DNA from: Actinomycetaceae bacterium
Lineage (GTDB): Bacteria; Actinomycetota; Actinomycetes; Actinomycetales; Actinomycetaceae
Length of the DNA: 64,000 bases
Direction: 5' to 3'
NCBI GenBank assembly: GCA_030532515.1
Contig: JAUNKY010000003.1
Coordinates: 28,147 to 92,146, forward strand
In this document: piece by piece, positions 13,901 through 55,768 of the stretch
Layout of the letters: each line of letters starts with the position of its first letter
How positions within the stretch are numbered: position 1 is the first letter of the stretch
Program-made: the position numbers and the translations under genes
Notes under the pieces: model-generated
Seen by the model: the letters and a program-made list of their open reading frames with translations, nothing else
What the model was told of the DNA's origin: nothing
Databases searched by the model: none

Positions 13901-16900
13901 CTGCTTTACTCCGCCCACCACTCGGTGCAGCTCAAAAACCACTCCACCTACCGGAGCCTGCGTATCCGCATCCACCTTCTTCAACTGCACACTACCCTTT
14001 TTGAGAGTGTTGGTGACGGTGGTGAGGACAACTTCTTGGTCTTGCTCAGAGATTACCGCCTGCTGCGTTTGGGCAGTTGGCAGGTAGTTAAGTAGCGGCG
14101 TGATTTCACGCAGTTGGTATTCGCCGTAGGCTACGCCGGTGAAAGTTGCGACACCGTCTACCTGGGTGAGGGCGGTGTAGTTAGGCGTGGTCGGATAAGA
14201 ACCGTCTGCGCCCTTTTTGTAAAGGCCAAATTCTACGCCCGCCAAAAGGACGGTAGGTGTATCCGCGTCTACCTTAGTGACCTTCACCGTGCCAGTGATA
14301 ACGCTGTTTACGAATGGAGCACCCGCAGATACTACTTCTCCTTCATTTAACACTGCGATTTCTCGTCCGCCTACTTCAGCCGAGGGGTTGTACCCTTCCT
14401 TTGGAGTGGTTTCCATCAAGAAGTAGGAGCCGTACAGTACCCGCTTGAAAGTTGCCCTACCATCTGGTCCGGTTACGGCAGTGTAGGCAGCTGGTTCTAC
14501 GGCGAAGCCATCCATATTGCTAAAGAGGCTGAAGGTTACGCCCGGAAGTGGGTTTCCGCTCTCGTCCTGCTTCATAACAACTACGTCACCGCGAATCCGC
14601 TGATTTACAAACGGAGTATCAGTTAGGTCGTTAACCTCGCCGGCTTGATCAATCACGATCTCGCGCTTATCTGCCGTATTTAGGATATGACCTGCGATAG
14701 TTTCTTTTTCGCGTAATTCGTAGGTGCCAAACGGTACCTTCTCGAAAGTGGCAATGCCATCTGGTTCCGTGGTGGCTACCAAAGTTGGGTTAGGAGCCAC
14801 TCCGGCAGCAGTCTTTTCGTAAAGTGCAAATACTACCCCATCCAGCGGTGTGCCAGGATTGTCATCGTCTGTCTTCTTAACGATTACAGAACCGTTAATG
14901 AACTGGTTGGGAATGTTCCCGACGGTAACAGTCTGCTTATCTTCAGTTACCTGTACCTCCCGGTCGGTGGTATCAAGCACGTATCCGGGAAGCGTGGCAG
15001 TTTCCCGCACCACGTAGGTTCCGAAGCGAACATTGTTAAAAGTAGCAACGCCGTCACCGTTAGTTACGGCTGTATCTACTGGGTCGGCAGCTACACCCTG
15101 TGCTGTCTTTGAGTAGAGCTTGAAGGTTACGCCAGTTAGTTTCTTAGTGGGCTGCTCCTTATCGACCTTCACCAAAGTCACCGTGGACTTCTTAATAGTG
15201 TTCGTCAACGGCTCAGTCACAAAATCAACTACCTGACCATCCGTATCAATATTCACATCCAGTTCCCTACCCAACGGCAAGTAACCGGTAGCCGGAGCCT
15301 TCTCAACCAACTTATAAGCCCCAAAAGGCACCCCTGAGAAAGTAGCCAGACCCGCCGGATCAGTAGTCTGCGTAGCAAAAACAGCATCCTGCTTTACTCC
15401 GCCCACCACTCGGTGCAGCTCAAAAACCACTCCACCTACCGGAGCCTGCGTATCCGCATCCACCTTCTTCAACTGCACACTACCTTTGAAGATAGTGTTT
15501 TCATAATCTTCCAGGACGTATTCGTGTCCGTGGTCGCGAACTTCCACGTCTACCGTCTGAGTTGATTTTTGGTAGTGTGCCGGAGCGGTCTTTTCACTGA
15601 GGGTGTAGTCGCCGTAAATAACGTTGTTAAAGGTGGCGATTCCATCAGGTCCAGTGGGGTTGGATTCGTATTTGATAGTTGGATTAGTTTTACTTACCAG
15701 AGCAAATACTGCTCCGGAAAGGGTCGTATTAGGGTTGTCTGCATCGACCTTCTTTACCTTTACGGTTGCTTTCACAACCGTATTTTGGATTTCGATGGCT
15801 GGCTGCGCCTGCCCAGCAGTATCAACTGCTAGGGGCGCGCTGCTGACAATGATTTCTTTCGGAGCTGTTAGACCTTGGACGCCAGCGGGAACGTTTGTTT
15901 CGGTTAGCGTGTACTTACCAAACGGCACGTCCCTAAAAGTTGCATAGCCGGTTGCCGTGGCGTCCGTAGTTTTATCCGTATCTGCTTTTTCTCCGGTAAC
16001 TGCGGTGCGTGGTGCTGGCAGTGGGTCCGGAGCATCGATTCCTGGCAGAGGTTCCACCCAGGTAAGGGTGAAGTTAATGCCATTGAGCAAGTTTCCGTCT
16101 TGGTCAACCTTCTTGATGATTACATCGCGTTTGGTTGCTTTAACACCTGCGTTAATGGTGGCTTCTGGCGTAGCTGGGGTTAGTGCGAATGCTTTCGAGT
16201 AACCGATTTGGTTAGTCTTCGCCCCTGCTTCGGCGCAGTTCGTGGCTTCAGCTGTTGCAAGTGGTGTAGCCTCACCTTGAATGTCACCGCGACACTTTTC
16301 AACGTGGTTAGCCAAAGCCACGTCCTGTGACGGCACTACCGTGTAGGTTTCCGAGGCTTCCTTAACGAACTGGATGCGGTAGTTTCCGCGAGTGTAAACC
16401 GGAAGCTCGTAGTTACCGAAATTGTCAGTTACTGTGCTTACTTCAGTGCCATCTGGGTGGGTAGCAACTTTCCCGGTAGTGGCATCTACCAGAATAACTT
16501 TGCGTCCTGCTACGCCTCCTTCAGAAGTACTCCCAGATCCGTTATGATCCAGGTCGCGGAAGTAATTTCCTTTGACACGGTAGTTGATGATTTCCGAAAT
16601 TACTTCATTTGCTTCCAGGTAGGTAAGGGCATCTATAGAGCTGGCAGCAGAATGTACCGCCTTGTATGCAGCCGGTAGTTCCTTAGTTTTTTCGTTGAAA
16701 GGAATCTGATGCTTGGTGACAATCTGAATTGCTTCGCCGGCTGCTAGTGCTGAGTTGTCTTTGAAAACCAGCTTGAAGTTCCGGATTTCATTCCAGTTGG
16801 TGACTTCATCTGCACGTAGCCAGACGCCGTCGCGGACATCCTGCAGGCGATCTCCTTGCGGGACCTTGGAATAGAAGATATCCACGCGATTGGTCGCGTC

Positions 16901-27162: not shown

Positions 27163-28260
27163 TCAGGGCTGGTTCTTGGATTCTACCTTGATTTCGCCGT
27201 TCTTGATCTTTTCTTCCAGCTTCTTTACGCCTTCCTTAACTTCTGCAGGAACCTTGTCCTCGAAGTCGTGGAATGGAGCGATGGAAACGCCACCGTTCTT
27301 CAGGTTGCCTACGTATGGTTCACCAGAGAAGTTGCCTTCGGTCAGGCCCTTGATGGTGTCGAATACGGAGTTACCAATTTCCTTAACCACGGAGGTCAGG
27401 ATCAGGTTCTTGAATTCTGGCTGGGTGTTGTAGCCGTCAGCGTCAACCCAGATAACCATGGTGCCGTTGTTTGCTTCCTTAGCTGCTGCCAGGGTACCTG
27501 CACCTACTGGACCTGCAACTGGCATGATTACGTCAACGCCCTGTTCGATCAGCTGGTTGGAGAAGGTCTGACCCTTTGGAACGTCAGAGAAGCCACCGAC
27601 TACGATGCCGTCCTGCTTTGCCTTGTCCCAGCCAACGAGCTTAACGTCTGCGCCGTGTTCTTCGTTGTACTTCTTCATACCATCTTCGAAGCCGTCAGCG
27701 AAGATTGCGGTGGTAGGAATGTTCAGACCAACGAAGGTACCAATCTTGCCCTTGCCGGTCATGCCTGCTGCTACGTAGCCAGCCAGGTAGGAAGCTTCAG
27801 CGGTGTTGAATACCAGTGGCTTCAGGTTTTCTGGCTTTTCTTCGTAGTTGAAGTCAACGATTGCGAACTTAACATCTGGGTTAGCGGTTGCCTTTTCCTT
27901 CATGATGTCTGCCATCAAGAAGCCAACGCCAACGATGATGTCACAGTTGTCAGAGATCAGAGCTTCGATGTTTGGATCGTAGTCTGCTGCAGAGTGGGAT
28001 TCGGTGAACTTAATTTCGATGCCCAGTTCTGCTTCAGCGCGCTTCAGACCTTCGAAACCGGACTGGTTGAAGGACTTGTCTTCGAAGCCACCTTCGTCAG
28101 AAACCATACATGCCTTAACCTTCTTGGCAGGTTCGGTCTTGGTGGTTTCCTTGTTTTCCTTGCCAGCTTCTGGCTTGGCGTCAGTTGCTGCACCGCCACA
28201 TGCGGACAGAACCAAAGCTGCGGATACCATCAGGGCACCGAACTTCATAGTGTTCTTCAC
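27163..28260 (-). CDS. BMP-family (PnrA/Med-like) nucleoside-binding lipoprotein
   Basis: Lipoprotein signal with LSACGG lipobox; BMP-fold motifs. First gene of the bmp-ATPase-permease-permease-cdd-deoA-deoC(-dNK) minus-strand operon. Confidence 0.85.
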   Translation of the reverse strand: MKNTMKFGALMVSAALVLSACGGAATDAKPEAGKENKETTKTEPAKKVKACMVSDEGGFEDKSFNQSGFEGLKRAEAELGIEIKFTESHSAADYDPNIEALISDNCDIIVGVGFLMADIMKEKATANPDVKFAIVDFNYEEKPENLKPLVFNTAEASYLAGYVAAGMTGKGKIGTFVGLNIPTTAIFADGFEDGMKKYNEEHGADVKLVGWDKAKQDGIVVGGFSDVPKGQTFSNQLIEQGVDVIMPVAGPVGAGTLAAAKEANNGTMVIWVDADGYNTQPEFKNLILTSVVKEIGNSVFDTIKGLTEGNFSGEPYVGNLKNGGVSIAPFHDFEDKVPAEVKEGVKKLEEKIKNGEIKVESKNQP

Positions 28261-28578
28261 AATTTCCTCCTATGGAGTTGTAAGGATACTCTGAGTTACC
28301 GTTTTCTATGGAACATTTTTCCTTTGAATGGTCTCTCATTTGCCGTTCCAGTTTACCTGATTATTGTTAGCAATATCGCGGTCGATATGGAATCGTTACC
28401 CAGCAATGCCCGAGTTTCCCGCAAAATTGCCCACATTTAGCGACGTAGCTCACACTCTTTCGTGACTATAGTAGAGGGACTTTACAAACCCTTAACTAAA
28501 GCAAATTACGGACTATCAATTACCTACGCTCGATTGAGTTTGCCTATAGCAACGTTAGTCGCACGTTATACCGTTCAT

Positions 28579-28712
28579 TTCGCACGGGAAACCGCTTTCG
28601 TATGCGAATTCAGCCCACCAACCCCCTAAATTCACACGGGAAACGGCTTTCGTATGCGAATCCAGCCCACCAACCCCCTAAATTCGCACGGGAAACGCGT
28701 TTCCCGTGCGAA
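28579..28712. repeat. Family B tandem palindromic repeat array, locus 1 (3 units, 52-bp period)
   Basis: 30-bp palindromes TTCGCACGGGAAAC(C/G)GCTTTCGTATGCGAA separated by 22-bp linker TTCAGCCCACCAACCCCCTAAA. Third unit is a perfect palindrome TTCGCACGGGAAACGCGTTTCCCGTGCGAA. Confidence 0.85.
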
Positions 28713-28855
28713 TTGAGAGTAGACTGGGCGCCCTCGGGACAATATCGGGTGAACGGCGCTCCCAACCTGCCCTCTGAAATTAAACTAATCCCGCTCCCCT
28801 GCTGCGAACTTTTAGCTCGCCGGGAAGCGGGATCAGTAAAGCACTATTAAATGAA

Positions 28856-30364: not shown

Positions 30365-31435
30365 TTAGTCGTGCTTATAGGTAAATGGTGGAACTACAGT
30401 TCCTTCCGCAATGTCAGTATCGTGCAGGAAGCTGTGGGCAATCACTGCGCCGGTACCTACGTGGACATTGCGAAGCGTGGTGTTTGGACCTACCACGGCA
30501 AAAGGCTCAACAACGGTGTCGCCTTCTAAAATGGTGCCGGGTTCGATGCAGGCATCGGGTCCGATTTCAACAGTTACGTCAATGTGGGTGGTGCCTGGAG
30601 AGACGATGGAAACTCCGGCTTTCATGTGTGCGTCAAGGATGCGACGGTTCATTTCGTCGCGCAGTTCGGCCAGTTGCGCGCGGTCGTTACAGCCCTGCGC
30701 CTGCCACTGGTCTTCCAGAATGTAGGCTCCGCAGCGGCGTCCTTCGGCAACGGCGATGGCTACCGTGTCGGTTAGGTAGACTTCGCCCTGGTCGTTATTC
30801 GTTCCGATTTTTTCGAGGGCGCCACGGAGGAATTGGGCATCAAAAGCGTAAATTCCCGCGTTGATTTCGTTAATTTCTCTTTGCTCTTCAGTGGCGTCGC
30901 GGTGTTCAACGATGCCCACCAGGGCTCCGTGGTCACGCACCATTCGCCCGTATCCGGTAGGGTCATCAACTAAGGTGGTTACTACGGTTACGGCATTTTG
31001 GTTGGCTTCATGCAGTGCGTGGAGTTCTTGCAGAGTGTGTGCTTCTAGTAAGGGGACGTCTGCAGAAGTAACGATGATGGTGCCAGTCAGGTCTGCTCGA
31101 AGGGCTTCTAAGCCGCACTGTACGGCGCGTCCGGTGCCGGGAATTTCGTCTTGGTCGGCGATGCGCACGTTTTCGTCCAGGGCTTTAACTACTTCAATGA
31201 CGTTTTCACGTTGGTGGCGGACTACCACTACTACATCGTCTGCGCCGGCTTCGTAGGCGGCGTTGATTGAGTGTCCTACCAGGGGCAGTCCACACATGGT
31301 GTGGAGGACTTTGGGGGTAGCGGATTTCATCCGGGTACCCTGACCGGCGGCGAGTACAATTACTGCACTTGGATGAGTTGGCTCAGCGTTTGGGGTCTGC
31401 GCAGATTCTGGCGACACTACACTTTGGTGGGACAC
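30365..31435 (-). CDS. glmU: GlmU N-terminal part: UDP-GlcNAc pyrophosphorylase domain plus only the first turns of the LbH domain (C-terminally truncated, 356 aa)
   Basis: LAAGQGTRMKS nucleotidyltransferase motif. Ends ~35 bp before prs with no room for the acetyltransferase active-site region. Confidence 0.75.
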   Translation of the reverse strand: MSHQSVVSPESAQTPNAEPTHPSAVIVLAAGQGTRMKSATPKVLHTMCGLPLVGHSINAAYEAGADDVVVVVRHQRENVIEVVKALDENVRIADQDEIPGTGRAVQCGLEALRADLTGTIIVTSADVPLLEAHTLQELHALHEANQNAVTVVTTLVDDPTGYGRMVRDHGALVGIVEHRDATEEQREINEINAGIYAFDAQFLRGALEKIGTNNDQGEVYLTDTVAIAVAEGRRCGAYILEDQWQAQGCNDRAQLAELRDEMNRRILDAHMKAGVSIVSPGTTHIDVTVEIGPDACIEPGTILEGDTVVEPFAVVGPNTTLRNVHVGTGAVIAHSFLHDTDIAEGTVVPPFTYKHD

Positions 31436-31539
31436 TGGGGTGACTCTTTCGAAGTTCGCATTTTTACCCTGGGGTGCGCCCCAGAGTTTGCCTTTGGGGA
31501 CACATCTTTATCTATCATAAGCGGTTTCTTAAGCAAAGT

Positions 31540-31661
31540 GTGAACTGTCCAGATTTTTTGATTTGTTAGCAGAAATCTTTTTTACGTCTTTATTTTTTAA
31601 AAAATATATTATTCCTCAGACATCAGATGACTGGGGGCTAATTTCCGGGTAACATAAATTT
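31540..31661 (+). promoter_or_regulatory. AT-rich leader/promoter region upstream of the sialidase gene
   Basis: Strongly AT-rich (TTTTTTGATTTGTTAGCAGAAATCTTTTTTACGTCTTTATTTTTTAAAAAATATATTATT), unlike flanking DNA. Confidence 0.35.
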
Positions 31662-34600
31662 ATGGAACTCAACGTAGAGACCCGCCGACGGCGATTAGTC
31701 GGCGCATTAACAACCATTACGTTAATCGCAACTCCACTCACCGCACTGCCTTCCGCCTTTGGTGCAGAAGATCAAAATTCGGTGCCAGTCGCAGTCTCTA
31801 GCACTGCACAGGAAGCTTCCGCGCTTCCAAATGTGTCCGTACAAATCACTCCAGCCGAAGATCGCACCTACAATGTGGGCGAAACCATTCGGTTCAATGT
31901 CACGATTACCAACCATACTCCAAATTCCTACGGCATTCAGTTAGAAGCTTCGGAAACAAACCTGGGCAATACCCTTAAATGTCGTTGGTCCCAATTCAGA
32001 GGGAATGGACATTCCGGGAACTGCAATCGCGCTGACTTGCAGCTAACTCACGAAGTCACTGAAGAAGATGCCCGTGCCGGACAGTTCGTACCGTACTACG
32101 TTGTTACGCTCTATGAACCAAAGCCTACTTCAGCTACAGGCTATAAGAAGGTACTCCATAAGCTTCCGCGGGTCGAGCTTAAACCAATTAAAGTTGCAGC
32201 CCCGGGAACCACTAACCCAGCGCCTGCACCACGCGTCGCAGAGATCTCCTTCCAGCTCCGCAGCACCAAACAGGGGCCATGGACTTTGGGTGACTTGCTG
32301 GAATACACGATTCACGTTAAGAACGTCTCGGGCGCAGCCCGCGGTTTCACCCCTATTGATGGCAACTTAGACAAATGGGAAAAGTGCAAGTGGAGCAATC
32401 CCTTCCCAGACCAAACCACTAAGTCAGACTGTAGCTTCGTCACGCACCGCATCACCGCAGAAGACGTCACCCGCGGCTACTTTGAACCCTTCATCACCTA
32501 TCAAGGCGTTCCAAAAGCCGTAGGCGACAAAGTAATCATTCGCCCTGAAGCAATCGCCCTCGAACTAGGAGACGTTACCGGAGTAAAACCGCACTATACT
32601 GCCGGTGACGTACTCAGCTTCCCCGTGAAAGTTATCTCCCGCGGGCAGGAAACCTACACTCTGCGTACCGACGCCAGCAACCTAACTTTCACCGGCGCCA
32701 AATGTGATGGCACGCTGAATACCGGCGCCACCCACAGCTGCGAAGTAGGCACCTACACCATCACCGAAAATGACTTAGAAGCCGGCTACTTCACCCCTAC
32801 CCTCACGGTTACTGCCCTGGGCGCTAATCAAGAAGTTGCAGGCGTAGTGTCCCTAAAAGCCGCTGAAGTTAAACTCCCCCACCAGCACGTGTGGCCAAAA
32901 GCCGGCGCGTTTAAACCTGCTGACTATAATCCCGCAGGTAACGCAGCAGGCGGTCTAACCAAAGAACTGATTATCGCTCAGCAAAACGGCAATAACTTCT
33001 ACCGCATTCCGGCACTCACCGTGGCTCCAAACGGGGACCTGCTGGCGTCCTACGACCACCGGCCAAACCACGCCGGAGACACCCCTAACGCAAACTCCAT
33101 CGTGCAACGTCGTTCCTCTGACAACGGCAAAACCTGGGGTCCAGAAACCTTCGTTGCCAAAGCCCACGGAGTTCCAAACCAGACGCTGGAATCCTTCTCT
33201 GACCCCTCTTACGTAGTGGATTACAAGACCGGTAAGATCTTCAACTTCCACGTGAAGGGCTACAACCGCGGTTGGGGCAACGCTGAATACAGTTTCAATG
33301 GAGATAAAGTGCGCGTTGGGAACCGCAACTCCATGGACCTGCACGTTTCCGTTTCCGACGACAACGGCCGCACTTGGAAACACCAGGTGATCACCGACCA
33401 GTTGCTCAACGGACGTACTGAAACTGTCAAAGCCTTTGCCACCTCTGGCGACGGCATCCAAATCCAGCACGGTACCTACCAAGGACGCCTGGTACAGCCA
33501 GCTGCCTGGGGGCTACGCGATGGCCGCGTCGTAGCTGCAGTTATCTATTCTGACAACGGCGGCGAATCTTGGAAGCTGGGTCAGTGGACCCCTACCCAGG
33601 GTACTGACGGTGTACACCGCTGGGACGAAAATAAGGTCGTTGAACTTTCCGACGGACGTTTGATGATCAACTCCCGCGTTTCTGACGGCCCCGCCACCCG
33701 AGCCCGCGTGCGCGCGATTGCCTACTCTTCTGACGGTGGCGTCACTTGGACTGCTCCACAGACCGAATCGCAACTAACCGACCCGGTTAATAACGCGCAC
33801 ATCATCCGTGCTTTCCCGAACGCCCCACAGGGCTCGGCCAAGGCAAAGATGCTGCTGTTCTCTAACTCTAAGAACGCCTACGCCCGCACCAACGGCACCA
33901 TCACTGTTTCATGTGACGATGGTAAGACTTGGAAGAATGGAAGCGCTAAGGAATACTTCGCCGGACACATGGGTTACTCTTCCATCGCCGTTTTAAATGA
34001 CGGTTCCGTAGGTATCCTCTCTGAAGTTGCCGGTCACTCAATCCGCTTCCAGCGTTTTGACTCCACCTGGCTTGGACAGCAGTGTGACTTGACGGAAACT
34101 AACGTGCAGCCACCTGCTACCCCAGATTTCACCGTAGAAGTTGCGCCCACTCAAAAGCGCGTCTACACCGAAGGGGAAAAGATCTGGTTCCAGATTTCCG
34201 TTCGCAACAATTCCAGCCAGGCATACGGCCTGCAGATTGCCGCAGAAGACACCAACTTGTCGCGTACCGAACGTTGCCGTTGGTCTACTTTTGCCCCGCA
34301 GCAGTCCGGCACCTGCAACAACGACCGGTTGATGGCTTGGCATATTGTTACTTCCGAGGACGTAGCAGCCGGCTCTTTCACCCCGCACTACGCGCTGAGC
34401 CTGTACGAAGCTCAGCCAAGTACCAGCGACCAAATTTACAAGAAACGCCTCTTCACTTTGCCAAAGGTAACTTTGGAACCAGTCCAAGTAGCTCCAGCTC
34501 CACCACAGGCAGAGGTAACGATTCAATTAAATAACCCTAAGACCACTCCGTGGACTAAGGGTGATATTTTGAACTACAGCGTTTTAGTGAAGAACACTTC

Positions 34601-36854
34601 CGGTCGAGCACGCGGATTCCAACCAGAATCTTCAAACCTCACCGACTATGAACGCTGCAGATGGACAGCTCCATTCGCTCATGGCGTCACTAAACGTGAC
34701 TGCGACTTCCTCACCCACGAAATCACCGACGCTGACGTTGCTAACGGTTACTTTGAGCCTCGCATCAAGTACCGTGACGTAGCTGAAACCGTGGGGTCAC
34801 GAGTAACCATTACCCCACCGGTAATCTCAGCCACCCCAGTGCAAATCACTGAAAAGACTGACTACGCCATAGGCGACAAGATTGTTTTCGGCGCGGACAT
34901 CAAGTCTTTGGCGCAGCAGCCTCTCACCCTCCAGTTACAGCGCGCCAACGGTGTAGCTAAGCCAGGTACGTGTGATGGTCCATTGGCTCCGGCAGAAACT
35001 AAACAGTGCCGCGTGGAACACACCATTAGCGAAGATGATTTAATCACTGGTTACTTCACTCCGAAGCTGCAGTTTGCCGCCCTCGAAAATGATGCGGTAG
35101 TCCAAGTTGTGGTAATGCCAAGCAACGCTCTGCCACTGCCAACTACCCACCAGTGGCCGGCTGCCCAGCCATTTAAACCACATAACTTCAATCCCGAGTC
35201 TGCCGCTGCCGGCGGTCTCACGGAAGAAATCATCATTGCCCAACAGCATGGCAAGGTTTACTACCGCATTCCAGCGCTGACCGTGGCAGCCAATGGTGAC
35301 TTGCTGGCGTCCTACGACTACCGTCCAAATGGGGCTGGCGATACGCCGAACCCGAACTCCATCGTGCAACGCCGTTCCAAGGACAATGGCAAAACCTGGG
35401 GTCCAGAAACTTTCATCGCTAAGGCAACTGGCACGCAGTGGAAGGATCTGCATTCCTACTCTGACCCATCCTACGTAGTGGACTATACTACTGGCGCGAT
35501 CTTCAACTTCCACGTGAAGGGCCACGATCGCGGCTGGCACAACGGGGCTCGCTACCGCTTCGATGCCGCTGGTAACACCACCAACGATCACCCAGATGCA
35601 ATGGATTTCCATGTATCTACCTCCACTGACAACGGCTACACCTGGAAGCATCGCGTCATTACCGCTGATATTTTGCAAGGTCGTACCGACGCGGTGAAGG
35701 CCTTTGCAACTTCCGGTGACGGGATTCAGATTCGCCACGGACAGTACAAGGGTCGCCTGTTGCAGCCAGCAGCTTGGCATTTAACTGATGGCACTACCCG
35801 CGCGGCCGTCATCTATTCCGATGACCACGGGCAGACCTGGAAGCTGGGCGAATGGGCTCCAGCCGAGGGCGAAGGTGGACGTCATAATTGGGATGAAAAT
35901 AAGGTGGTGGAACTGGAAGATGGTCGAATTATGATCAACTCCCGAGTTTCTGCTGGCATCGCTAACCAGCTGCGAGTTCGCTTGGTTGCTTACTCTAACG
36001 ATGGCGGCGTCACCTGGGGTGCGCCAACTATCGAAACTGAGTTGACTGACCCGGTTAACAACGCGCATATCATCCGCGCTTTCCCAACTGCGAAGCCGGG
36101 GACTCCTGAGGCGAAGGTGCTGTTGTTCTCTAACGCGAAGCACCCGCGTGCCCGCGTGAATGGTTCTATCACGGTTTCATGTGATTCCGGGCAAACTTGG
36201 AAGAATGATCAGGCAAAGACTTTCTTCGAAGGCCATATGGGTTACTCTTCCCTAGCGATTTTGCGTGACGGAACGGTAGGTGTGCTTTCTGAAGTACAGG
36301 GTCACTCGATCCGATTCCAGCGTTTCGACGCCAGCTGGCTGGGCAAGCAGTGTAACTTGCCAGGGTTGGTTGATGAGGATTACGTGCCGGCTCCAAAGGT
36401 AGCTCCGGTTGTGACTATCGAGGGCGGTCAGGTAGTTCCTGGGAAGCAGATTTCCGGTAGCTTCACCGGCGCGACTCCTAATGGCAAGGTTCGCATTGAG
36501 ATTCACTCTTCCCCGGTTGTCCTGGGCGAGGTAGTTGCCGATGCTACTGGCGCAGGAAGCTTTAGCTTCGTCGTTCCAGCGAATATTCCTGCCGGAGCAC
36601 ATCATATTGTCGCGGTAGACGTAGCTACCAACCAGGCTGGGAAGCAGCCGATTGATGTGAAGGATGCTTCGCAAAGTGGTACTAAGCCGGGTGACGGTAA
36701 GGTGCAGACGCCGCAGAAGCCTAAGGCCCCGGTAGTTCCGAAACCGCAGTCCGCTTTACCAAAGACTGGTGCAGAAATCGCGACTCTCGGTGGCGTTTCT
36801 GTCGCGTTACTAGCTTTGGGCGGTTGGCTGGTTTTGCGTCGCAAAGCTCGCTAA
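31662..36854 (+). CDS. nanH: Cell-wall-anchored exo-alpha-sialidase (GH33) with two tandem complete catalytic modules, each preceded by three Ig-like domains
   Basis: Signal peptide. Two RIP motifs (FYRIPALTVAPNGDLLASYD; VYYRIPALTVAANGDLLASYD), each followed by 4-5 Asp-boxes (SSDNGKTW, SDDNGRTW, SDNGGESW, SSDGGVTW, SCDDGKTW / SKDNGKTW, STDNGYTW, SDDHGQTW, SNDGGVTW, SCDSGQTW). C-terminal LPKTG sorting signal. Confidence 0.85.
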   Translation: MELNVETRRRRLVGALTTITLIATPLTALPSAFGAEDQNSVPVAVSSTAQEASALPNVSVQITPAEDRTYNVGETIRFNVTITNHTPNSYGIQLEASETNLGNTLKCRWSQFRGNGHSGNCNRADLQLTHEVTEEDARAGQFVPYYVVTLYEPKPTSATGYKKVLHKLPRVELKPIKVAAPGTTNPAPAPRVAEISFQLRSTKQGPWTLGDLLEYTIHVKNVSGAARGFTPIDGNLDKWEKCKWSNPFPDQTTKSDCSFVTHRITAEDVTRGYFEPFITYQGVPKAVGDKVIIRPEAIALELGDVTGVKPHYTAGDVLSFPVKVISRGQETYTLRTDASNLTFTGAKCDGTLNTGATHSCEVGTYTITENDLEAGYFTPTLTVTALGANQEVAGVVSLKAAEVKLPHQHVWPKAGAFKPADYNPAGNAAGGLTKELIIAQQNGNNFYRIPALTVAPNGDLLASYDHRPNHAGDTPNANSIVQRRSSDNGKTWGPETFVAKAHGVPNQTLESFSDPSYVVDYKTGKIFNFHVKGYNRGWGNAEYSFNGDKVRVGNRNSMDLHVSVSDDNGRTWKHQVITDQLLNGRTETVKAFATSGDGIQIQHGTYQGRLVQPAAWGLRDGRVVAAVIYSDNGGESWKLGQWTPTQGTDGVHRWDENKVVELSDGRLMINSRVSDGPATRARVRAIAYSSDGGVTWTAPQTESQLTDPVNNAHIIRAFPNAPQGSAKAKMLLFSNSKNAYARTNGTITVSCDDGKTWKNGSAKEYFAGHMGYSSIAVLNDGSVGILSEVAGHSIRFQRFDSTWLGQQCDLTETNVQPPATPDFTVEVAPTQKRVYTEGEKIWFQISVRNNSSQAYGLQIAAEDTNLSRTERCRWSTFAPQQSGTCNNDRLMAWHIVTSEDVAAGSFTPHYALSLYEAQPSTSDQIYKKRLFTLPKVTLEPVQVAPAPPQAEVTIQLNNPKTTPWTKGDILNYSVLVKNTSGRARGFQPESSNLTDYERCRWTAPFAHGVTKRDCDFLTHEITDADVANGYFEPRIKYRDVAETVGSRVTITPPVISATPVQITEKTDYAIGDKIVFGADIKSLAQQPLTLQLQRANGVAKPGTCDGPLAPAETKQCRVEHTISEDDLITGYFTPKLQFAALENDAVVQVVVMPSNALPLPTTHQWPAAQPFKPHNFNPESAAAGGLTEEIIIAQQHGKVYYRIPALTVAANGDLLASYDYRPNGAGDTPNPNSIVQRRSKDNGKTWGPETFIAKATGTQWKDLHSYSDPSYVVDYTTGAIFNFHVKGHDRGWHNGARYRFDAAGNTTNDHPDAMDFHVSTSTDNGYTWKHRVITADILQGRTDAVKAFATSGDGIQIRHGQYKGRLLQPAAWHLTDGTTRAAVIYSDDHGQTWKLGEWAPAEGEGGRHNWDENKVVELEDGRIMINSRVSAGIANQLRVRLVAYSNDGGVTWGAPTIETELTDPVNNAHIIRAFPTAKPGTPEAKVLLFSNAKHPRARVNGSITVSCDSGQTWKNDQAKTFFEGHMGYSSLAILRDGTVGVLSEVQGHSIRFQRFDASWLGKQCNLPGLVDEDYVPAPKVAPVVTIEGGQVVPGKQISGSFTGATPNGKVRIEIHSSPVVLGEVVADATGAGSFSFVVPANIPAGAHHIVAVDVATNQAGKQPIDVKDASQSGTKPGDGKVQTPQKPKAPVVPKPQSALPKTGAEIATLGGVSVALLALGGWLVLRRKAR

Positions 36855-36937
36855 TCTACTGTCTGAGTAAATAGTCTGGGTGGCTGGTAGTTTTCTACCG
36901 GCCACCCAGTTTTTGCGCGTGGCCTTTTGGAGCTCAT

Positions 36938-37071
36938 TTCGCACGGGAAACGGCTTTCGTATGCGAATTGAGAGGGTTTGGGGGCTGAATTCGCACGGGA
37001 AACGGCTTTCGTATGCGAATTGAGAGAGTTTGGGTGCTCATTTCGCACGGGAAACCGCTTTCGTATGCGAA
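36938..37071. repeat. Family B tandem palindromic repeat array, locus 2 (3 units, inverted relative to locus 1)
   Basis: TTCGCACGGGAAACGGCTTTCGTATGCGAA x3 with 22-bp linkers TTGAGAGGGTTTGGGGGCTGAA, which resemble the reverse complement of the locus-1 linker. Confidence 0.85.
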
Positions 37072-37184
37072 ATGAAGGTTGGCGGGCGCCCTCGGGAAAA
37101 TTTTTACGAGGGCGGACCACCCGGGTCTTGCGAAACACTGCCAAGTCTCCGCCCTAAACCGTGCTCCCTCCAAAGAAAAATCCA

Positions 37185-37341
37185 AACTCGTATCAAAATC
37201 GCAAACTGATACGAGTTATCGCCCAAAACCAACGCAAAATGAGGATAACTCGTATCAAAAACTGATTTTGATACGAGTTATGGGTAAAACGGGGGCTAAA
37301 CCAGGGATAACTCGTATCAAAACGCGAATTTGATACGAGTT
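37185..37341. repeat. Family A tandem palindromic repeat array, locus 3 (3 units, inverted orientation)
   Basis: AACTCGTATCAAAATCGCAAACTGATACGAGTT etc. with a 62-bp period; linker contains AAAATGAGGAT, the reverse complement of ATCCTCATTTT in loci 1 and 2. Confidence 0.85.
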
Positions 37342-37517
37342 TCAAAAAAGGGAGCAAAACCGGCGGACATGACGCCCCACCCAGCCCCCCCGAACCGGGC
37401 GCCAAAGCATCCACGCCTGCTGAGCATTGGATCCTGCTGAGCATCGGCGCTTAAAACCTACCGTACCAATCCCAAAAACCGAAAACAAAAAGGGAACTCG
37501 CAAAAGCGAGTTCCCAG

Positions 37518-37592
37518 TGGTTCCGCCCCCAGGATTCGAACCCAGATCTCAAGGCACCAAAGGCCCGCGTCATGCCGTTAGACCAGGGCGGA
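37518..37592 (-). tRNA. tRNA-Gln (anticodon UUG), CCA encoded
   Basis: Reverse complement folds as a cloverleaf: acceptor stem TCCGCCC/GGGCGGA (U1-A72, typical of bacterial tRNA-Gln), T-loop GGTTCGAAT, anticodon loop CUUUGGU, 3' ACCA. Confidence 0.6.
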
Positions 37593-37857
37593 AGCTTTTA
37601 CTATTGTGCCACATCGAAGTGGATTCGCACAATTGCAGGCTGTGTAGCCCCGCAGAAAGCCACGCCCACCAACAGAACGGCTACATAAGAAAGCCACGCC
37701 CACCTGCAGAACGGCTACATATGAAAGCCACACCCCTCCCGAAAACAGGACTAATCCCACAAATGCTGTTGCATAATCAGGGAAAACCCTGACAGCTTAT
37801 TCCCAGGTACGCCCGCTACAATTAGAAAAAAGCTATCGAACATAGAGGTAACAAGTT

Positions 37858-49965: not shown

Positions 49966-50277
49966 CACTGGGAGGGGAAGCGGAAGGGAATTTTCTGGCC
50001 AAGTTCGTTTCTTTTTACTCACGTGCCCTAGTGTAACCGGTGCGGGCGGTTTTACGTGAGTGTGGGGTAGTGAGTTTAGAAGCCTTGGTTGCAACGGTCC
50101 ATTCGTTAGAAAATTGTGCCTATTTTACAAATTGCACCAAGCTATCTGGCAACTTGCACACTTGTGCATTTCATTCGGATGACAGCGGAAATGTCTTTCA
50201 ACTAAGATAATACTTGCAACTACCTGCTCAAAGACGGGCAGAATCAAACAGTTTTGCGCAATTATGATGGAGAGACG

Positions 50278-53200
50278 ATGAAGTCAAACACCCGCAGTAA
50301 AACAGCGAAAACGCTGGGATTGCTAGTGGGAGCCAGCCTGGCCACCACTATGTTAACTCCGGTTGCCTTCGCAGCTGATCCAGATACGATCACTAAGATA
50401 CCCCAAACTGAAATGGCAGCAGTTTGGACAAACTCACCGGTAGCCACAAATGAAGGTACCAACGGCGCCCTCGAAAAAATCCTGGACGGCGACCCCCAAT
50501 CCTTCTGGCACACCCAGTGGCATCCCACAAAAAGCCCTCTGCCACACAGTTTCGTTGTGAAGTTGGGCGACGCCCCGGTGAAACTCGCCAAGTTAGAACT
50601 AACTCCCCGGCAAAGTTCCAACGGTTCAGGACGTGCCCGCGACTGGGACGTGTACACGTCGACCGATGAAACCTGTGGCGAAAACTCTAACTTCACGCTG
50701 GCGAAAAGCGGAAGTTTCCCCGGCGATACCGCTACTTACCGGGAAACCCGGGAAATAATCTTCAAACCCAGTATCGAAGCCAAATGCGTGAAGTTCACGC
50801 AGAAAACTTCCTGGGGTGGGCACCAAGGTAACGAAGTAACCTCCCGCGACGAAACTGTTGCCTCCCTAGCTGAGTTCAACGCATTCAAAGGTGAGTGGCC
50901 GGAAGACAACGCCCCTGGCGGCACTGATCCAGTTCAGCCCCCGGCCGCCACTATTCCCGCTGAAGACCTCATTACCATAACGGACGGAACTCTAAGCGTA
51001 AAAATGCACAAACAGTTCCCCCAGGTAGTTGAATGGGCCCTTGGCGACGCTAAAGCAAATGGCAACACTGCGGTTCCAGATCCACAGATTTACATGGACG
51101 AAACCAGCTACCCAGTAGAAGTTTCCGAAGCTACCACCACAGAAAACAGCGCCACCTGGGACTTTAAAGTCACTGGCACTGCCGTCACTTTCAAAGCTAC
51201 CGCCACTGTTAAAGACGGTATTTGGAAGCTGGAACTTCACGACCTGGTAGATCCAAACGGCCAAATGCACCGCATTATCCTCCATACACTATCTTTTGTT
51301 TCCCTAGGAGCCGATGAAGAACTGGCTACCGCCACCATCAGTGTCAACCGCGCTGTCAGCGGCGACCGAATTGGGGCTGCTCGGACCTTCGCTGGCGGAT
51401 ACTACTCTTACATGAGCATTGCCACTTCAGGACAGCTGTCCTTTGGTATGGATAACAACGCTATTGCAGATAATACCGTTCGATACGACGGTCGTACCCA
51501 AGGCTCAAACGGGAAGTGGATCAACGTCTTCCATGAAGGAACCGGCAGAGTCATTCCAGGCTCTTTCGTCTGGCGTTCCCCCTCGGCAACGGTAATTGGT
51601 AATGATGAGAACCCGTACGTGGTAGTAAAACCAACCGTTGATGCCAACAAAGACTCAGTACTTAACTGGCAAGATGGCGCCATTGCCCTGCGTGATATTC
51701 GCCCGGCAATCAACGGTGCCGACCAGGTAAAAAACACGGTAATTACTCGTATTCCGTTCAACATTGTTTCCCAAGCCACCCACCCATTCTTACGCACTTT
51801 GGATGACACGAAGCGTATTGCGTTAGCTACCGACGGTTTACGTCAGCAGGTAATGCTCAAAGGCTACCAAGCTGAAGGACACGACTCCGCTCACCCAGAC
51901 TACGCCGGAAACTACAATGAAAGAGCTGGTGGTTTCACTGACCTGGTTACTTTAGCTAACGAAGCCCAGCAGTGGAACGCACTGATCGGCGTACACGTTA
52001 ACGCCACAGAATCCTACTCTGAATCCAAGAACTTCAGCGAAGAGCTACTGTATATGCCTCCTCGCAAAGCCTGGGGTTGGATGAACCAATCCTATTACAT
52101 TAACGGCCCTAAGGATCTGGGTACTGGGAAGGTACTGGAACGCTTCAAAGAGTTCAAAAAAGAAGCTCCCGCTAACCTCAACTGGCTGTACATTGACGTG
52201 TATTACCCAGATGGTTGGGAAGGACGCCGACTCTCTGACGAACTGCGCAAACAAGGTTGGGTAATCGGCACCGAATGGGCAGACAAGATGCCAGAAAACT
52301 CCATCTGGTCTCACTGGGCTAATGATGAAAACTACGGCGGTACCAACAATAAGGGCGTCAGCTCCCAAATATTCCGCTTCGTTGAAAACACTCGCCGCGA
52401 CATTTTCAACCCTCACCCAATCCTGTCCAACTCCAACATCGTCGAATTCGAAGGCTGGACTGGGCACGTTAACTACAACGATTTCATCCGTAACATCTGG
52501 GATCGTAACCTGCCAGTTAAATTCCTGCAGCAGTCTCCAATTATGCGTTGGGAAGCTAACTCCATCACCTTCGAAAACGGCACTGTAGCAACCTCTGACT
52601 TGACCACTATCGGTGGGCGCGACGTTCCCTACCAGCGCGTTATCAACTATGATGGCGCAGTAGTTTACCAGGGCGGAAAGTACTTGCTTCCATGGAAAGA
52701 CGGCGGCACCGACCGTCTTTACCACTGGAATGTAAACGGTGGCGCCTCCACCTGGACGCTAACTAATGCTTGGAAGAACCAGACATCTCTCTCACTTTTC
52801 AAGCTCACTGACCAAGGACGCGTCAAGGTTTCTGACGTGGCAGTAACCAACGGCCAGATCACCCTTGAAGCTGAAGCTGGTGTAGCATACGTACTGTACC
52901 CAACTTCCGCAGTACCAATGCCAAAGGCTCCGAACTGGGGTCAAGGCTCCCCCATTGCTGACCCCGGCTTCTTCTCTGGCACTTTAAACGCCTACCAAAC
53001 CACCGGTGACGTTTCCATCGTAAAAACTGACCGTGGCAACAACCAGGTAGCTTTAGGTGCTGGCGCAGCTTCCATCTCCCAAATTCTAGGGGGCGGTAAC
53101 TTACCTGCTGGAACCTACAATGCTTCTGCCTGGATTGAAATTGCCAATGGGGCAGAAAGAGACGTTACCCTTACCGTAACCGGTGACGGCGTAACCGCAA

Positions 53201-55578
53201 CGCAGCTGCAGGCAGTTCAGGGCTCTGTTCCCACCACGGTAGTTAAGAGTTCGCGCACTCCAAACGCTACTGCCTCAGATGAAAAGTTCCGCACTTACTT
53301 CCAGCGTGCGCGCGTAACCTTCACCACCACCGGCGGAGCCGTAACCTTTAAGATTGCCGCGGGTGAAGGTGAAGCTAAAGTCCACGTTGACGATCTGCGA
53401 CTTGTTTCCTTCACCTCCCCCACCCTTCCATCTGGAGTTGAAGCTTCCAAGGTAGTGGTCTTCGAAGACTTCGAAAACCCAGACTCCGGCTACTGGCCAT
53501 ACGTAACCGGCCCAGTTCAAACTGGTGACGCACGTACCCAGCTAACCCGTCGCCACGAGCCATATTCGCAAGCCGGCTGGTGGGGCATTGACGCTAACGG
53601 GCGTCCTCGAGAAGGATACAAACTGGTCGACAACGTACTTTCCGGTAACTGGTCGCTGATGGCGCACGAAGAAAACACCGGTCTGGTCCTGCGCACCGCA
53701 GAAACCACCGTGGCGCTGCAACCAAACCACAAGTACCGTATTTCCTTCGACTACCAAAACGCTCGGGCAAACACCTACGCGTTCGTAACCGGCTACGACA
53801 CGCTGGACACCAAGGGTCGTATCAAAACCACCCACCAGCAAATCTTCTCTTTCCCATCCACCGCGAACACTGACGTAACCCCAGTAACTGCACAAACCCA
53901 ACGGTTCACGCACGAACTGAACGTTGGGGCCTGCGGCTCATACTGGTTCGGGATCGAAAAGATCGGTGGAGGCTGGCAAGCTGACCTGTCTATGGACAAT
54001 ATTTTGGTTGAAGACCTGGGGGAATCCGACACGGTAGTCCCGTGTGCTTCCCTCCAAATCATCCCAGACTCTGGATTTGTCGCTGGTAAAGCCTCTGTGG
54101 TGCGCACTATTCTGACCTCTGCTGAAAACTCAGTTGCCAGCGAGGTAAAGCACCTGCTGGTAGTTCCACAAGGCTGGTCTGTCACCGCAATTGAACCAGT
54201 TTCAGATACCCTGGCAGCTAAGAGTAGAAGTATGCAAACCTGGTTGGTAACCCCGCCACTATCTGCAGCAAGTACCACGGCAAACCTGGTTGCTACAGGT
54301 AGTTATGACCTGCAAGACGGGCATGGAGTGCGCGTTTTGGAAGCTGATTTGGATGTGAAGATCACAAACTCAGGAATCATCGCCGGTAAGAATTACCTAT
54401 CTGACCTGCCATTCGTAGACACTCGCAACGGCTGGGGTCCAGTTGAACGCGACACTGCGAACGGAGAAAACAATGCCGGTGACGGGGGTCCAATCCGCAT
54501 TGACGGTGTCACTTATGAAAAGGGGCTGGGTACCCACGCTAACTCCATGGTTAAGTTCAACCTGGGTGGGCAATGCCAGTCCTTCCACGCAGTTGTTGGC
54601 GTTGATGACCAGCAGACTTCTGCCGGCACTATCCGTTTCTTAGTCACCGGCGATAATAGCGCCGTAGTGGTTCCAGAAACTGAGGTGTTGCGCCACAACT
54701 CGGCGGCAGTCACCCTTGACGCTGACATCACCGGCGTTCAAGAACTGACTCTGTGGGTAAACGGCGCTGGCGACGGCATTGGCAATGACTGGGCTTCTTG
54801 GGGCGACGCATACGTTGTATGTAACTCCGTAACCGAAACGGTTGTTCCAGCACTGGAAGCCACTCCAGATACCGTTAAACCAGGTGAAACAGTTACCCTC
54901 AAGCTAACTAACTTTACCGCTGGGGATACTCCAGTCACCCTGGTGCACGCCTACAGCGGCGTGAAGATAGGCGAAGTTACCATCGGCACTGATGGCACGG
55001 GAACCTACCAGTACACAGTTCCTGAAGACTACACTAACCCAGAAGTCCACTTCGGTGCGTTACAGGTAGTAGCTGCTAATACAAACGCAGCCAGCGCTAA
55101 GGTTACTGTCAAAAAGCCACAGCCTCAACCTAATACGCCAGGACCTAATACGCCTGGATTGCAGTTAACCTTGCTCACCCCATCCGTACACGCAGGTGAG
55201 GATGTTATTGGTACGGGCACTGGCTTCACCCCAGGTGCGCAGGTAGCTGTCGAACTGCATTCGAACATTATCCCTCTAGGAACAGTAGTTGCCGACGCAG
55301 CAGGAAAGGTTTCCTTCAAGTTCAAGGTTCCTACCACTGCAGTGGCTGGCGCTCACCACGTTGTCTTGGTGGATAAGGAAAAGAACCAGATTGTAAAGGC
55401 CCCAGTAACTGTATTGGCAGCTAAAGGGGATTCCTCGAAGCCAATCGTGACTCCAGTTCCTCCGAAGAAACCAGGTCTGTCCAACACTGGCTCCAATGCG
55501 ATGCAGGTTGGTTTGGGTGCGCTCTTCCTAGCAGTTCTAGGTTCCTTCGCTGTAATGCGTCGCAAGCGCATGCAGTGA
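50278..55578 (+). CDS. Cell-wall-anchored multidomain glycoside hydrolase, probably GH101 endo-alpha-N-acetylgalactosaminidase (O-glycanase), with F5/8-type-C and NPCBM-like carbohydrate-binding modules
   Basis: Signal peptide (start moved to MKSNTRSK). N-terminal discoidin-like FWHTQWHP block; central (b/a)8-like region; C-terminal NPCBM-like block GWGPVERDTANGENNAGDGGPIRIDGVTYEKGLGTHANS...NDWASWGDAYV; Ig-like repeats. C-terminal LSNTG + hydrophobic + RRKR sorting signal. Family assignment from overall architecture (~1770 aa, as in S. pneumoniae and Bifidobacterium enzymes), not from a verified catalytic motif. Confidence 0.6.
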   Translation: MKSNTRSKTAKTLGLLVGASLATTMLTPVAFAADPDTITKIPQTEMAAVWTNSPVATNEGTNGALEKILDGDPQSFWHTQWHPTKSPLPHSFVVKLGDAPVKLAKLELTPRQSSNGSGRARDWDVYTSTDETCGENSNFTLAKSGSFPGDTATYRETREIIFKPSIEAKCVKFTQKTSWGGHQGNEVTSRDETVASLAEFNAFKGEWPEDNAPGGTDPVQPPAATIPAEDLITITDGTLSVKMHKQFPQVVEWALGDAKANGNTAVPDPQIYMDETSYPVEVSEATTTENSATWDFKVTGTAVTFKATATVKDGIWKLELHDLVDPNGQMHRIILHTLSFVSLGADEELATATISVNRAVSGDRIGAARTFAGGYYSYMSIATSGQLSFGMDNNAIADNTVRYDGRTQGSNGKWINVFHEGTGRVIPGSFVWRSPSATVIGNDENPYVVVKPTVDANKDSVLNWQDGAIALRDIRPAINGADQVKNTVITRIPFNIVSQATHPFLRTLDDTKRIALATDGLRQQVMLKGYQAEGHDSAHPDYAGNYNERAGGFTDLVTLANEAQQWNALIGVHVNATESYSESKNFSEELLYMPPRKAWGWMNQSYYINGPKDLGTGKVLERFKEFKKEAPANLNWLYIDVYYPDGWEGRRLSDELRKQGWVIGTEWADKMPENSIWSHWANDENYGGTNNKGVSSQIFRFVENTRRDIFNPHPILSNSNIVEFEGWTGHVNYNDFIRNIWDRNLPVKFLQQSPIMRWEANSITFENGTVATSDLTTIGGRDVPYQRVINYDGAVVYQGGKYLLPWKDGGTDRLYHWNVNGGASTWTLTNAWKNQTSLSLFKLTDQGRVKVSDVAVTNGQITLEAEAGVAYVLYPTSAVPMPKAPNWGQGSPIADPGFFSGTLNAYQTTGDVSIVKTDRGNNQVALGAGAASISQILGGGNLPAGTYNASAWIEIANGAERDVTLTVTGDGVTATQLQAVQGSVPTTVVKSSRTPNATASDEKFRTYFQRARVTFTTTGGAVTFKIAAGEGEAKVHVDDLRLVSFTSPTLPSGVEASKVVVFEDFENPDSGYWPYVTGPVQTGDARTQLTRRHEPYSQAGWWGIDANGRPREGYKLVDNVLSGNWSLMAHEENTGLVLRTAETTVALQPNHKYRISFDYQNARANTYAFVTGYDTLDTKGRIKTTHQQIFSFPSTANTDVTPVTAQTQRFTHELNVGACGSYWFGIEKIGGGWQADLSMDNILVEDLGESDTVVPCASLQIIPDSGFVAGKASVVRTILTSAENSVASEVKHLLVVPQGWSVTAIEPVSDTLAAKSRSMQTWLVTPPLSAASTTANLVATGSYDLQDGHGVRVLEADLDVKITNSGIIAGKNYLSDLPFVDTRNGWGPVERDTANGENNAGDGGPIRIDGVTYEKGLGTHANSMVKFNLGGQCQSFHAVVGVDDQQTSAGTIRFLVTGDNSAVVVPETEVLRHNSAAVTLDADITGVQELTLWVNGAGDGIGNDWASWGDAYVVCNSVTETVVPALEATPDTVKPGETVTLKLTNFTAGDTPVTLVHAYSGVKIGEVTIGTDGTGTYQYTVPEDYTNPEVHFGALQVVAANTNAASAKVTVKKPQPQPNTPGPNTPGLQLTLLTPSVHAGEDVIGTGTGFTPGAQVAVELHSNIIPLGTVVADAAGKVSFKFKVPTTAVAGAHHVVLVDKEKNQIVKAPVTVLAAKGDSSKPIVTPVPPKKPGLSNTGSNAMQVGLGALFLAVLGSFAVMRRKRMQ

Positions 55579-55730
55579 TGACTTAGGCACGTATAAGTGG
55601 GGCTGGTCTCATCCGAGACCAGCCCCACTTACTGTTTCAGCCCCGTCGCACCGCAACACCCCCTTCCCATGCGACACCCCCTGAATTCGCACCGCAACAC
55701 CCCCTTCCGGCGCGACGGGAGGCATAAGAA

Positions 55731-55768
55731 AGCGCCCTCGGAAACCTTAGAATCCGAGGGCGCTTATT
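55731..55768. terminator. bidirectional terminator between the O-glycanase gene and the convergent pseudogene
   Basis: Perfect 12-bp stem AGCGCCCTCGGA/TCCGAGGGCGCT, then TATT. Confidence 0.6.

Follow-up and report, generated by a model that had tools for sequence, protein, structure and literature searches.

The spacer at positions 36855-37857 of the window (the whole 64-kb stretch of DNA that was analysed, taken from a metagenome-assembled genome, or MAG, of the family Actinomycetaceae) carries tandem arrays of two families of short palindromes, here called Family A and Family B, which are found between the gene of a large sialidase and a transfer RNA gene, tRNA-Gln. This spacer is probably a mosaic of dispersed, lineage-specific repeats, similar in type to the clusters formed by repetitive extragenic palindromic (REP) sequences, bacterial interspersed mosaic elements (BIMEs) and REP doublets forming hairpins (REPINs), which have settled past the terminators of the neighbouring genes and do not represent attachment (att) sites, the sialidase gene being an old insertion and the repeats a later addition.

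Within the 64 kb, the modules are dispersed, extragenic, palindromic, mosaic and lineage-specific, and a congener does without them. The number of units varies around a fixed period, and the arms are constrained in sequence. The A and B repeats are previously undescribed members of a familiar class, the bacterial interspersed palindromic repeats, and a search of the literature found no description of REP elements in Actinomyces or Gleimia, nor of these repeats in the work on the Gleimia sialidases.

Anatomy and dispersal of the repeat arrays

Given that the coding sequence (CDS) of the sialidase ends at 36854, and that the next CDS, which encodes an ABC-transporter ATPase on the plus strand, starts at 37858, the region is exactly the whole spacer between these two genes. 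An earlier reading of this DNA, made from its letters alone (the sequence-only reading), had described here a B array, an A array, a GC hairpin and a tRNA-Gln gene, all of which are present where it had placed them. The modules of the spacer, i.e., the B palindrome in 52-nt units, the GC-hairpin tail and the A palindrome in 62-nt units, are bracketed by two intrinsic terminators. The terminator of the sialidase gene (36876-36909, plus strand) has a 15-bp stem followed by TTTTT and is kept in a sibling lineage, and that of the tRNA-Gln gene (37515-37492, minus strand) has an orthologous hairpin in Gleimia sp. 6138-11-ORH1.

The B array (36925-37080, plus strand) consists of three 52-nt units, in which the imperfect palindrome cores TTCGCACGGGAAAC(G/C)GCTTTCGTATGCGAA recur with a 52-nt period (36938-36967, 36990-37019 and 37042-37071), and it is followed at about 37084-37115 by the GC hairpin GCGCCCTCG...CGAGGGCG (plus strand), a tail module that also occurs after the B arrays of the sibling loci. 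The A array (37181-37344, minus strand) consists of three 62-nt units with the cores AACTCGTATCA-N11-TGATACGAGTT at 37185-37217, 37247-37279 and 37309-37341, which again follow a single period, of 62 nt. The tRNA-Gln(ttg) gene itself (37518-37592, minus strand) is called by both ARAGORN and Rfam.

The 663-nt spacer between the sialidase and tRNA genes folds far better than its shuffled versions, with z = -9.7 for the plus strand and z = -12.7 for the minus strand. When the window was scanned, nine matches were obtained for Family A and five for Family B, and none in any of 100 dinucleotide-preserving shuffles. Rfam returned only the tRNA at its gathering score, and in a permissive scan the best non-tRNA matches were generic long-hairpin microRNA models, which scored far below the threshold.

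Similar modules are found at five extragenic spacers in the 64 kb, and none of them lies within a gene. For example, two other Family A arrays, each of three 62-nt units on the plus strand, are located at 5004-5160, between convergent Mrp/ApbC-like and YbjN-like genes, and at 10644-10800, between a phosphoglucomutase-like gene and a convergent gene for a 2909-aa SpaA-repeat protein. A second Family B array (28579-28739, plus strand), also with three 52-nt units, closely follows the rplY terminator, on the upstream side of the Bmp operon, and it ends in a degenerate version of the GC-hairpin tail (28726-28739), which shares GGGCGCCCTCGGGA with the sialidase spacer. Finally, two degenerate B-like cores with a 41-nt period, together with an intact GC hairpin (55732-55762), occupy 55646-55762 on the plus strand, downstream of a GH101 gene. 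None of these four sites is tied to the sialidase.

The genes next to two of these sites deserve a brief description. The 2909-aa surface protein (10931-19660) has 17 matched SpaA repeats of prealbumin-like fold, and the A array lies just past its terminator. The GH101 endo-alpha-N-acetylgalactosaminidase (1774 aa, 50254-55578), placed between tatD-like and transglutaminase-like genes, is the second large mucin-glycan enzyme of the window and is followed, as is the sialidase gene, by a terminator, B-like cores and a GC hairpin. One further hairpin of the CGAGGGCG/CGCCCTCG type was observed at 62244-62310, in the spacer that follows an ABC transporter gene, so that this GC motif may represent a third family among the dispersed repeats.

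The placement of the arrays is not uniform across the types of spacer, as full arrays are found in three of the six convergent spacers, in one of approximately 26 co-directional spacers and in none of the five divergent ones (one-sided hypergeometric p ~0.01, calculated by hand), and the degenerate B-like copy after the GH101 gene is likewise in a convergent spacer. A strict confinement to convergent spacers was considered and rejected, given the position of the B array at 28579. The open reading frame at 27268-28440 (plus strand, 390 aa) is regarded as spurious because it has no Pfam match and the most deviant codon usage of the window. The real gene, for a Bmp/PnrA-like lipoprotein, is on the minus strand (27163-28260), and the spacer of this array is therefore co-directional.

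Every full array lies beyond a terminator, or a terminator-like hairpin, of the neighbouring gene or genes, these structures having been scored by program in the sialidase–tRNA spacer and read from the sequence in the other array spacers. The arrays occupy the least-transcribed and least-constrained DNA available.

The three A arrays can be aligned end to end, from approximately TTTGAAACTCG to CGAGTTTAAAATTT, and the flanks beyond these limits are unrelated. The array beside the tRNA-Gln gene is inverted relative to the other two (at 5004 and 10644). Over the nine units, arm identity is 97% within arrays and also between them, the loops are 65% identical, and the spacers, of approximately 25-29 nt and with a shared conserved start, CCTCATTT, are 57% identical between arrays and 70% within them. 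Given these values for arms and spacers, the A arms are constrained in sequence, and the arrays as a whole have evolved partly in concert.

Family B presents a different kind of rearrangement, in which the core has the same orientation in both arrays and the 22-nt spacer is flipped, with 84% identity as the reverse complement. The third core of the second B array (28683-28712) is a perfect palindrome. A 16-nt motif made up of the B flank and arm is also found within an A spacer, at 10742-10757, with a single mismatch. The A cores have stems of 11-16 bp and the B cores are 30-nt imperfect palindromes, and the hairpins fold, as DNA, with -7.7 to -17.8 kcal/mol and z from -3 to -11.

Two resemblances of the A units were examined and set aside. 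The A arm ATAACTCGTATCA (37245-37281) resembles the loxP arm ATAACTTCGTATA, and the kinship would need one indel and a centre of 11 nt instead of 8, so that it is treated as a coincidence. A sequence resembling a DnaA box, TTATCCTCA, is found at the junction of the A unit and the spacer with one mismatch from the Escherichia coli consensus, and 64 kb should contain dozens of these matches by chance alone.

Two minor repeats complete the spacer. A short direct repeat, CCTGCTGAGCATYGG, is present in two copies at 37416-37447 (plus strand). Upstream of the tRNA gene, in the divergent spacer that separates it from the ABC transporter genes, there are 2.4 copies of a 34-nt tandem repeat, AGAAAGCCACGCCCACCAACAGAACGGCTACATA (37654-37735, plus strand), which occurs at this single site in the window, has no counterpart in the shorter spacer of Gleimia sp. 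6138-11-ORH1, and could be a duplicated promoter or operator segment.

The sialidase insertion and the later arrival of the repeats

The sialidase gene (31662-36854, plus strand) encodes a 1730-aa protein that has two catalytic BNR modules, both complete, given that the Pfam families BNR_2 and BNR_3 each match twice, and its product matches NCBI MDO5060247.1, a protein of a MAG with the label Actinomycetaceae bacterium, at 100% identity. The protein consists of a ~755-aa module duplicated in tandem, and its two halves, which are 56% identical, each include an entire BNR catalytic domain. Such an arrangement of two modules was seen only in the present Gleimia subclade. The best homolog outside the clade has 38% identity over one module only, so that no donor is visible.

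The sialidase gene is separated by a divergent AT-rich spacer (31436-31661, 38% GC), which falls within one 78%-identity blastn segment shared with Gleimia sp. 6138-11-ORH1, from a gene for a glmU-like nucleotidyltransferase (30365-31435, minus strand). The product of this gene shares 85% identity with its counterparts in Gleimia sp. 6138-11-ORH1 and G. coleocanis, and the lineage of the window, judged by sequence, is an uncultured relative of Gleimia.

In most other Actinomycetaceae the glmU-like gene is directly downstream of tRNA-Gln. Thirteen loci outside Gleimia cover the site (from Schaalia, Actinomyces, Winkia, Varibaculum and MAGs), and in 12 of them the tRNA-Gln gene is found 40-220 nt upstream of glmU, on the same strand and without an insert. 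The remaining locus (L010) has only ~120 nt of upstream sequence, with no tRNA within it. In the window, this gap is of ~6.1 kb and includes the sialidase gene, which therefore breaks the adjacency of the 12 loci, and the proposal of the sequence-only reading that the sialidase is an acquired insert in a conserved gene order is borne out.

Within Gleimia, the contents of the site differ among lineages. The sialidase gene occupies it in the window, in the sibling lineage and in Gleimia sp. 6138-11-ORH1 (locus L002), whose gap contains an orthologous sialidase of 1752 aa. The slot of G. coleocanis (locus L003) holds a DJ-1-like gene, a gene for a 939-aa Cna_B surface protein and a sialidase remnant (L003 8422-8936), which consists of ~500 nt of the second catalytic module and has 70-79% nucleotide identity to positions 35349-36095 of the window. 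In G. hominis (locus L006) the slot holds a pair of genes for an RHH antitoxin and a ParE toxin (L006 8772-9285), and a TetR-family gene was observed on the other side of the tRNA-Gln gene. The junction of tRNA-Gln and glmU is thus a variable slot in Gleimia, which the sialidase gene entered before the lineage of the window, Gleimia sp. 6138 and G. coleocanis diverged.

The age of this insertion is also reflected in the sequence of the gene. The sialidase is 74% identical to its Gleimia sp. 6138 ortholog, within the range of 60-98% of the flanking proteins (ABC permease, 60%; glmU-like protein, 85%; ABC ATPase, 88%; Prs, 98%), its GC content is 0.544 (0.578 at third codon positions), and its synonymous-codon distance to the rest of the window, 0.091, is the lowest among the 39 genes. 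The GC profile of the window is flat, and the tests of composition and codon usage gave no sign of recent horizontal transfer. The suggestion that the insert might be ancient is therefore upheld. Given all this, the sialidase gene is an old insertion, passed on by vertical descent ever since and, in G. coleocanis, decayed.

The repeats have a different history. No A or B copy was found, with 4-5 substitutions allowed, in 28 related loci, which comprise the loci of the three Gleimia species named above, at 21 kb, and 25 others. The sialidase–tRNA spacer of Gleimia sp. 6138 has 297 nt, versus 663 nt in the window, and it includes terminators of its own and lacks both A and B units. This genome also has no B array downstream of rplY. 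In comparison with it, the window has ~370 extra nt at the sialidase–tRNA spacer and ~340 extra nt at the rplY spacer. Given this absence from the orthologous sites of a congener that has the same genes, the arrays are dispensable.

The sibling lineage, which is represented by the Logan contigs L046-L051 and whose sialidase is 90% identical to that of the window, has two B units and the GC hairpin at both of the orthologous loci, versus three units in the window, with a 52-nt period throughout. As the B arrays are absent from Gleimia sp. 6138 and present in the sibling at both loci, their arrival is bracketed on the two sides: they appeared after the Gleimia sp. 6138 split and before the sibling split, well after the arrival of the sialidase gene. 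For the A arrays, the absence from Gleimia sp. 6138 is the only bound on their arrival, because the sibling contigs stop ~60 nt past the GC hairpin, before the position at which the A array would begin.

Other species of the genus present triplet arrays of their own, with three 31-nt palindromic units in G. coleocanis (L003 840-929) and three 27-nt units in G. hominis (L006 14758-14838). Small intergenic tandem arrays may be a genus trait of Gleimia, with a different family in each species.

Proposed mechanism of spread and rival explanations

The course of events begins with the insertion of the sialidase gene into the tight junction of tRNA-Gln and glmU in an ancestor of the Gleimia subclade. 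Following the split of Gleimia sp. 6138, the B arrays arose in this spacer and in at least one other, and the number of their units drifted, to two in the sibling and three in the window. The spread may have involved non-autonomous units, with the invariant arms serving as recognition sites for a factor from another part of the genome, for which a RAYT (REP-associated tyrosine transposase) or other HUH-type enzyme, another transposase or a DNA-binding protein would be candidates. The arrays may then grow and shrink by slippage or unequal recombination, and the segments between inverted arms might be able to flip.

A number of points weigh against this account. Neither a transposase nor a RAYT is found among the proteins of the window, so that mobilisation in trans is conjectural, and the full arrays of the window are all triplets, with no solo copies, a pattern not predicted by the simple transposition of single units. 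Neither the boundaries of the insertions nor target-site duplications could be delimited in an alignment of the rplY spacer with that of Gleimia sp. 6138, as the flanks are too diverged. The covariation of the B hairpin in 14 copies from the window and the sibling lineages does not exceed that of shuffles either, given that 66 of 500 shuffles reach the observed score. The features conserved in the B copies are sequence blocks (TTCGCA, GAAAC, TTTC and TGCGAA), not the pairing as such. In addition, the copy counts rest on 64 kb of this genome, and, the window being part of a MAG, the exact numbers of units could carry assembly error.

According to the sequence-only reading, the arrays would be the boundary or att region of an island targeted to the tRNA-Gln gene and carrying the sialidase, i.e., they would have been made or used by site-specific integration. 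In favour of this, the sialidase gene lies on the 3' side of tRNA-Gln, where it interrupts the order of genes kept in the 12 loci outside Gleimia, and the cargo of the slot differs between Gleimia species. The same repeat families are found, however, at four other spacers unrelated to the sialidase, and they are missing from the corresponding spacer of Gleimia sp. 6138 despite its orthologous sialidase. Because these repeats are scattered over several spacers of the window, dense palindromes beside a tRNA gene are not evidence of an integration site.

The more specific signs of integration were not found either. A direct repeat of the 3' end of tRNA-Gln had been expected on the far side of the sialidase, and there is no partial copy there, 31436-31661 included: with up to three mismatches allowed, the 24-mer at the 3' end of the tRNA has no second match in the window, and its 11-14-mers gave only chance-level matches in the window and in the loci of Gleimia sp. 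6138, G. coleocanis and G. hominis. The glmU side of the sialidase has no comparable array. The AT-rich leader of the gene, which had been taken as a signal of transfer, has a GC content (38%) within the range of 33-57% of the other intergenic regions, and the codon usage and GC content of the sialidase gene are core-like. The sequence-only reading was correct in reporting no integrase, as Pfam scans of the predicted proteins of the window found no integrase, transposase, RAYT or Cas domain. Given all this, nothing points to a tRNA-att integration of the sialidase gene, and the arrays are very improbable as att sites or island boundaries.

The main rival of the dispersed-repeat mosaic is the possibility that the arrays are cis-elements kept by the host, such as back-up or bidirectional terminators, insulators between adjacent transcription units, protectors of RNA 3' ends or phased sites for the binding of an architectural or nucleoid protein. 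The arrays lie only 3' of genes and adjoin terminators, their hairpins are stable (about -9 to -18 kcal/mol as DNA, z -3 to -11), and one A unit scores as terminator-like. The arms are invariant as the loops and spacers drift, and the period is kept between lineages despite sequence change. A related palindrome from Coriobacteriia (locus L039), which is described below, also lies between an A-run and a T-run, in the manner of a bidirectional terminator. The periods of 52 and 62 bp are near five and six helical turns, but this argument of helical phase is numerology. The arrays are, moreover, behind strong primary terminators, where little transcription is expected, they are absent from the orthologous sites of the congener with the same genes, no compensatory changes were seen in the B stem, and there is no Rfam match. 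On balance, a host-kept function is unlikely, though it is the explanation to be taken most seriously after the mosaic of dispersed repeats.

The 62-nt period and the palindromic repeats, with spacers more variable than the repeats, also give the A arrays a superficial likeness to an orphan or degenerate mini-CRISPR (clustered regularly interspaced short palindromic repeats), with palindromic repeats of 33-37 nt and spacers of ~25 nt. Such a locus is barely credible here, as each array has three repeats only, the spacers within an array are 70% identical and share the start CCTCATTT, and the variability is inside the repeat, in its loop, unlike in CRISPR repeats. Moreover, the 64 kb include three arrays of this kind, no cas gene was found in the window, and neither the A and B patterns, searched in viral contigs, nor the spacer region, compared by blastn with phages and plasmids, found any match.

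An artefact of the assembly might likewise be considered, since the window is from a MAG and the uniform three-unit arrays could reflect the handling of repeats by the assembler. The Logan assemblies of other sequencing runs, however, read through two B units and the GC hairpin at two loci, and the loops and spacers of an array vary from unit to unit, so that the path of the assembly is determined. The same-strain short-read contigs from Logan also end where this would be expected, as both ends of one (L001) are inside B units and another (L052) starts inside the third A unit, multi-copy repeats being a cause of interruption in short-read assemblies. It is hardly conceivable, then, that the arrays were created by the assembly.

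Relation to known repeats and significance

The arrays resemble the enterobacterial REP sequences and BIMEs, and the REP and REPIN clusters of Pseudomonas fluorescens SBW25, in that all of them are short imperfect palindromes, extragenic and dispersed (the present ones over five spacers in 64 kb), often located past the 3' ends of genes. As in the REP and REPIN clusters, evenly spaced tandem arrays include flanking sequence, two groups may be mixed, and the elements are lineage-specific, and a mosaic of the REP type can be recognised in the juxtaposition of B, the GC hairpin and A, in the flipped B spacer, in the inverted A array and in the B-arm motif within an A spacer. In P. fluorescens SBW25, ordered and evenly spaced tandem REP and REPIN arrays have been described, some of which interleave two REP groups (Bertels and Rainey 2011, PMC3116915), and groups of RAYTs have been found well beyond the Proteobacteria (PMC5581495). 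The present system differs from these in its host, an actinomycete, and in having no RAYT or other transposase in the 64 kb searched. Unlike the REPIN doublets of 70-110 nt, its units are single hairpins with arms of 11-16 bp, which always occur in triplets, with no singlets in the window.

Other families of intergenic repeats share some of these features. The mycobacterial interspersed repetitive units–variable number tandem repeats (MIRU-VNTR) are tandem units of 40-100 bp dispersed between the genes of an actinobacterial genome, and their number differs among related lineages at orthologous loci with no change of period. The same is true here (two versus three units at 52 nt). The MIRUs are found inside operons and have small open reading frames that overlap the neighbouring genes, whereas the present arrays lie beyond terminators, mostly between convergent genes, they are based on palindromes, and they have no sequence similarity to the MIRUs. 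The intergenic mosaic elements of Neisseria (dRS3/RS arrays) and the pneumococcal BOX elements are also modular, with an inverted-repeat motif that alternates with variable segments and a variable number of modules, in unrelated sequences and hosts. The dRS3 repeats are targets for the integration of a phage in Neisseria, of which no counterpart was seen here. As for the tRNA-linked islands, the likeness consists of a cargo, a secreted glycosidase, directly 3' of a tRNA gene, at a site whose contents change from species to species, and the difference lies in the lack of an integrase, of a direct repeat derived from the tRNA and of a compositional signal, and in the vertical inheritance of the cargo within the subclade.

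One other likeness was obtained from a scan of metagenomes with the A arms, which revealed a multi-copy dispersed palindrome, GGGGACGTATAACTCGTATCATTTCnnnGAAATGATACGAGTTATACGTCCCC, on six contigs of the metagenome Ga0123356. Its host is a Coriobacteriia MAG, given that the FtsZ encoded on one of the palindrome contigs is 100% identical to an NCBI MAG protein. The core of this palindrome, ATAACTCGTATCA-N11-TGATACGAGTTAT, has exactly the Family A arms, with an arm of 13 nt and a loop of 11 nt. Among the contigs L031-L045, examples are found at 13560-13700 of L033, at 1610-1690 and 2470-2560 of L035 and at 3120-3200 of L039, and in the last of these the hairpin is surrounded by an A-run and a T-run, similar to a bidirectional terminator. 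The Coriobacteriia copies are single and flanked by runs of the GGGGATACAG type, so that the architecture of their flanks differs from that of the window.

The 13-nt arm and 11-nt loop common to two distant lineages of Actinomycetota could be due to chance or to a conserved recognition factor. It is doubtful that Family A is a deep palindrome family of the whole phylum, with arms held invariant by a trans-acting protein that is itself conserved and belongs to a RAYT-like or a new type.

For the interpretation of this locus, the results remove a false lead, given that dense palindromes near a tRNA gene do not mark an integration site, and they separate two events in time: the early insertion of a double sialidase for mucin foraging in a Gleimia subclade and the later colonisation of the spacer by repeats. 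They also provide the Actinomycetaceae with REP/BIME-like families for which the literature search gave no description and that fragment short-read assemblies. As the number of units varies between close lineages, the arrays could be of use in typing. The invariance of the arms points to a sequence-specific factor, which would be worth seeking in complete genomes. If Family A did prove to be such a deep family, with its arms maintained by a conserved trans-acting protein, no REPIN/RAYT-like system would have been described in the phylum before these triplet arrays.

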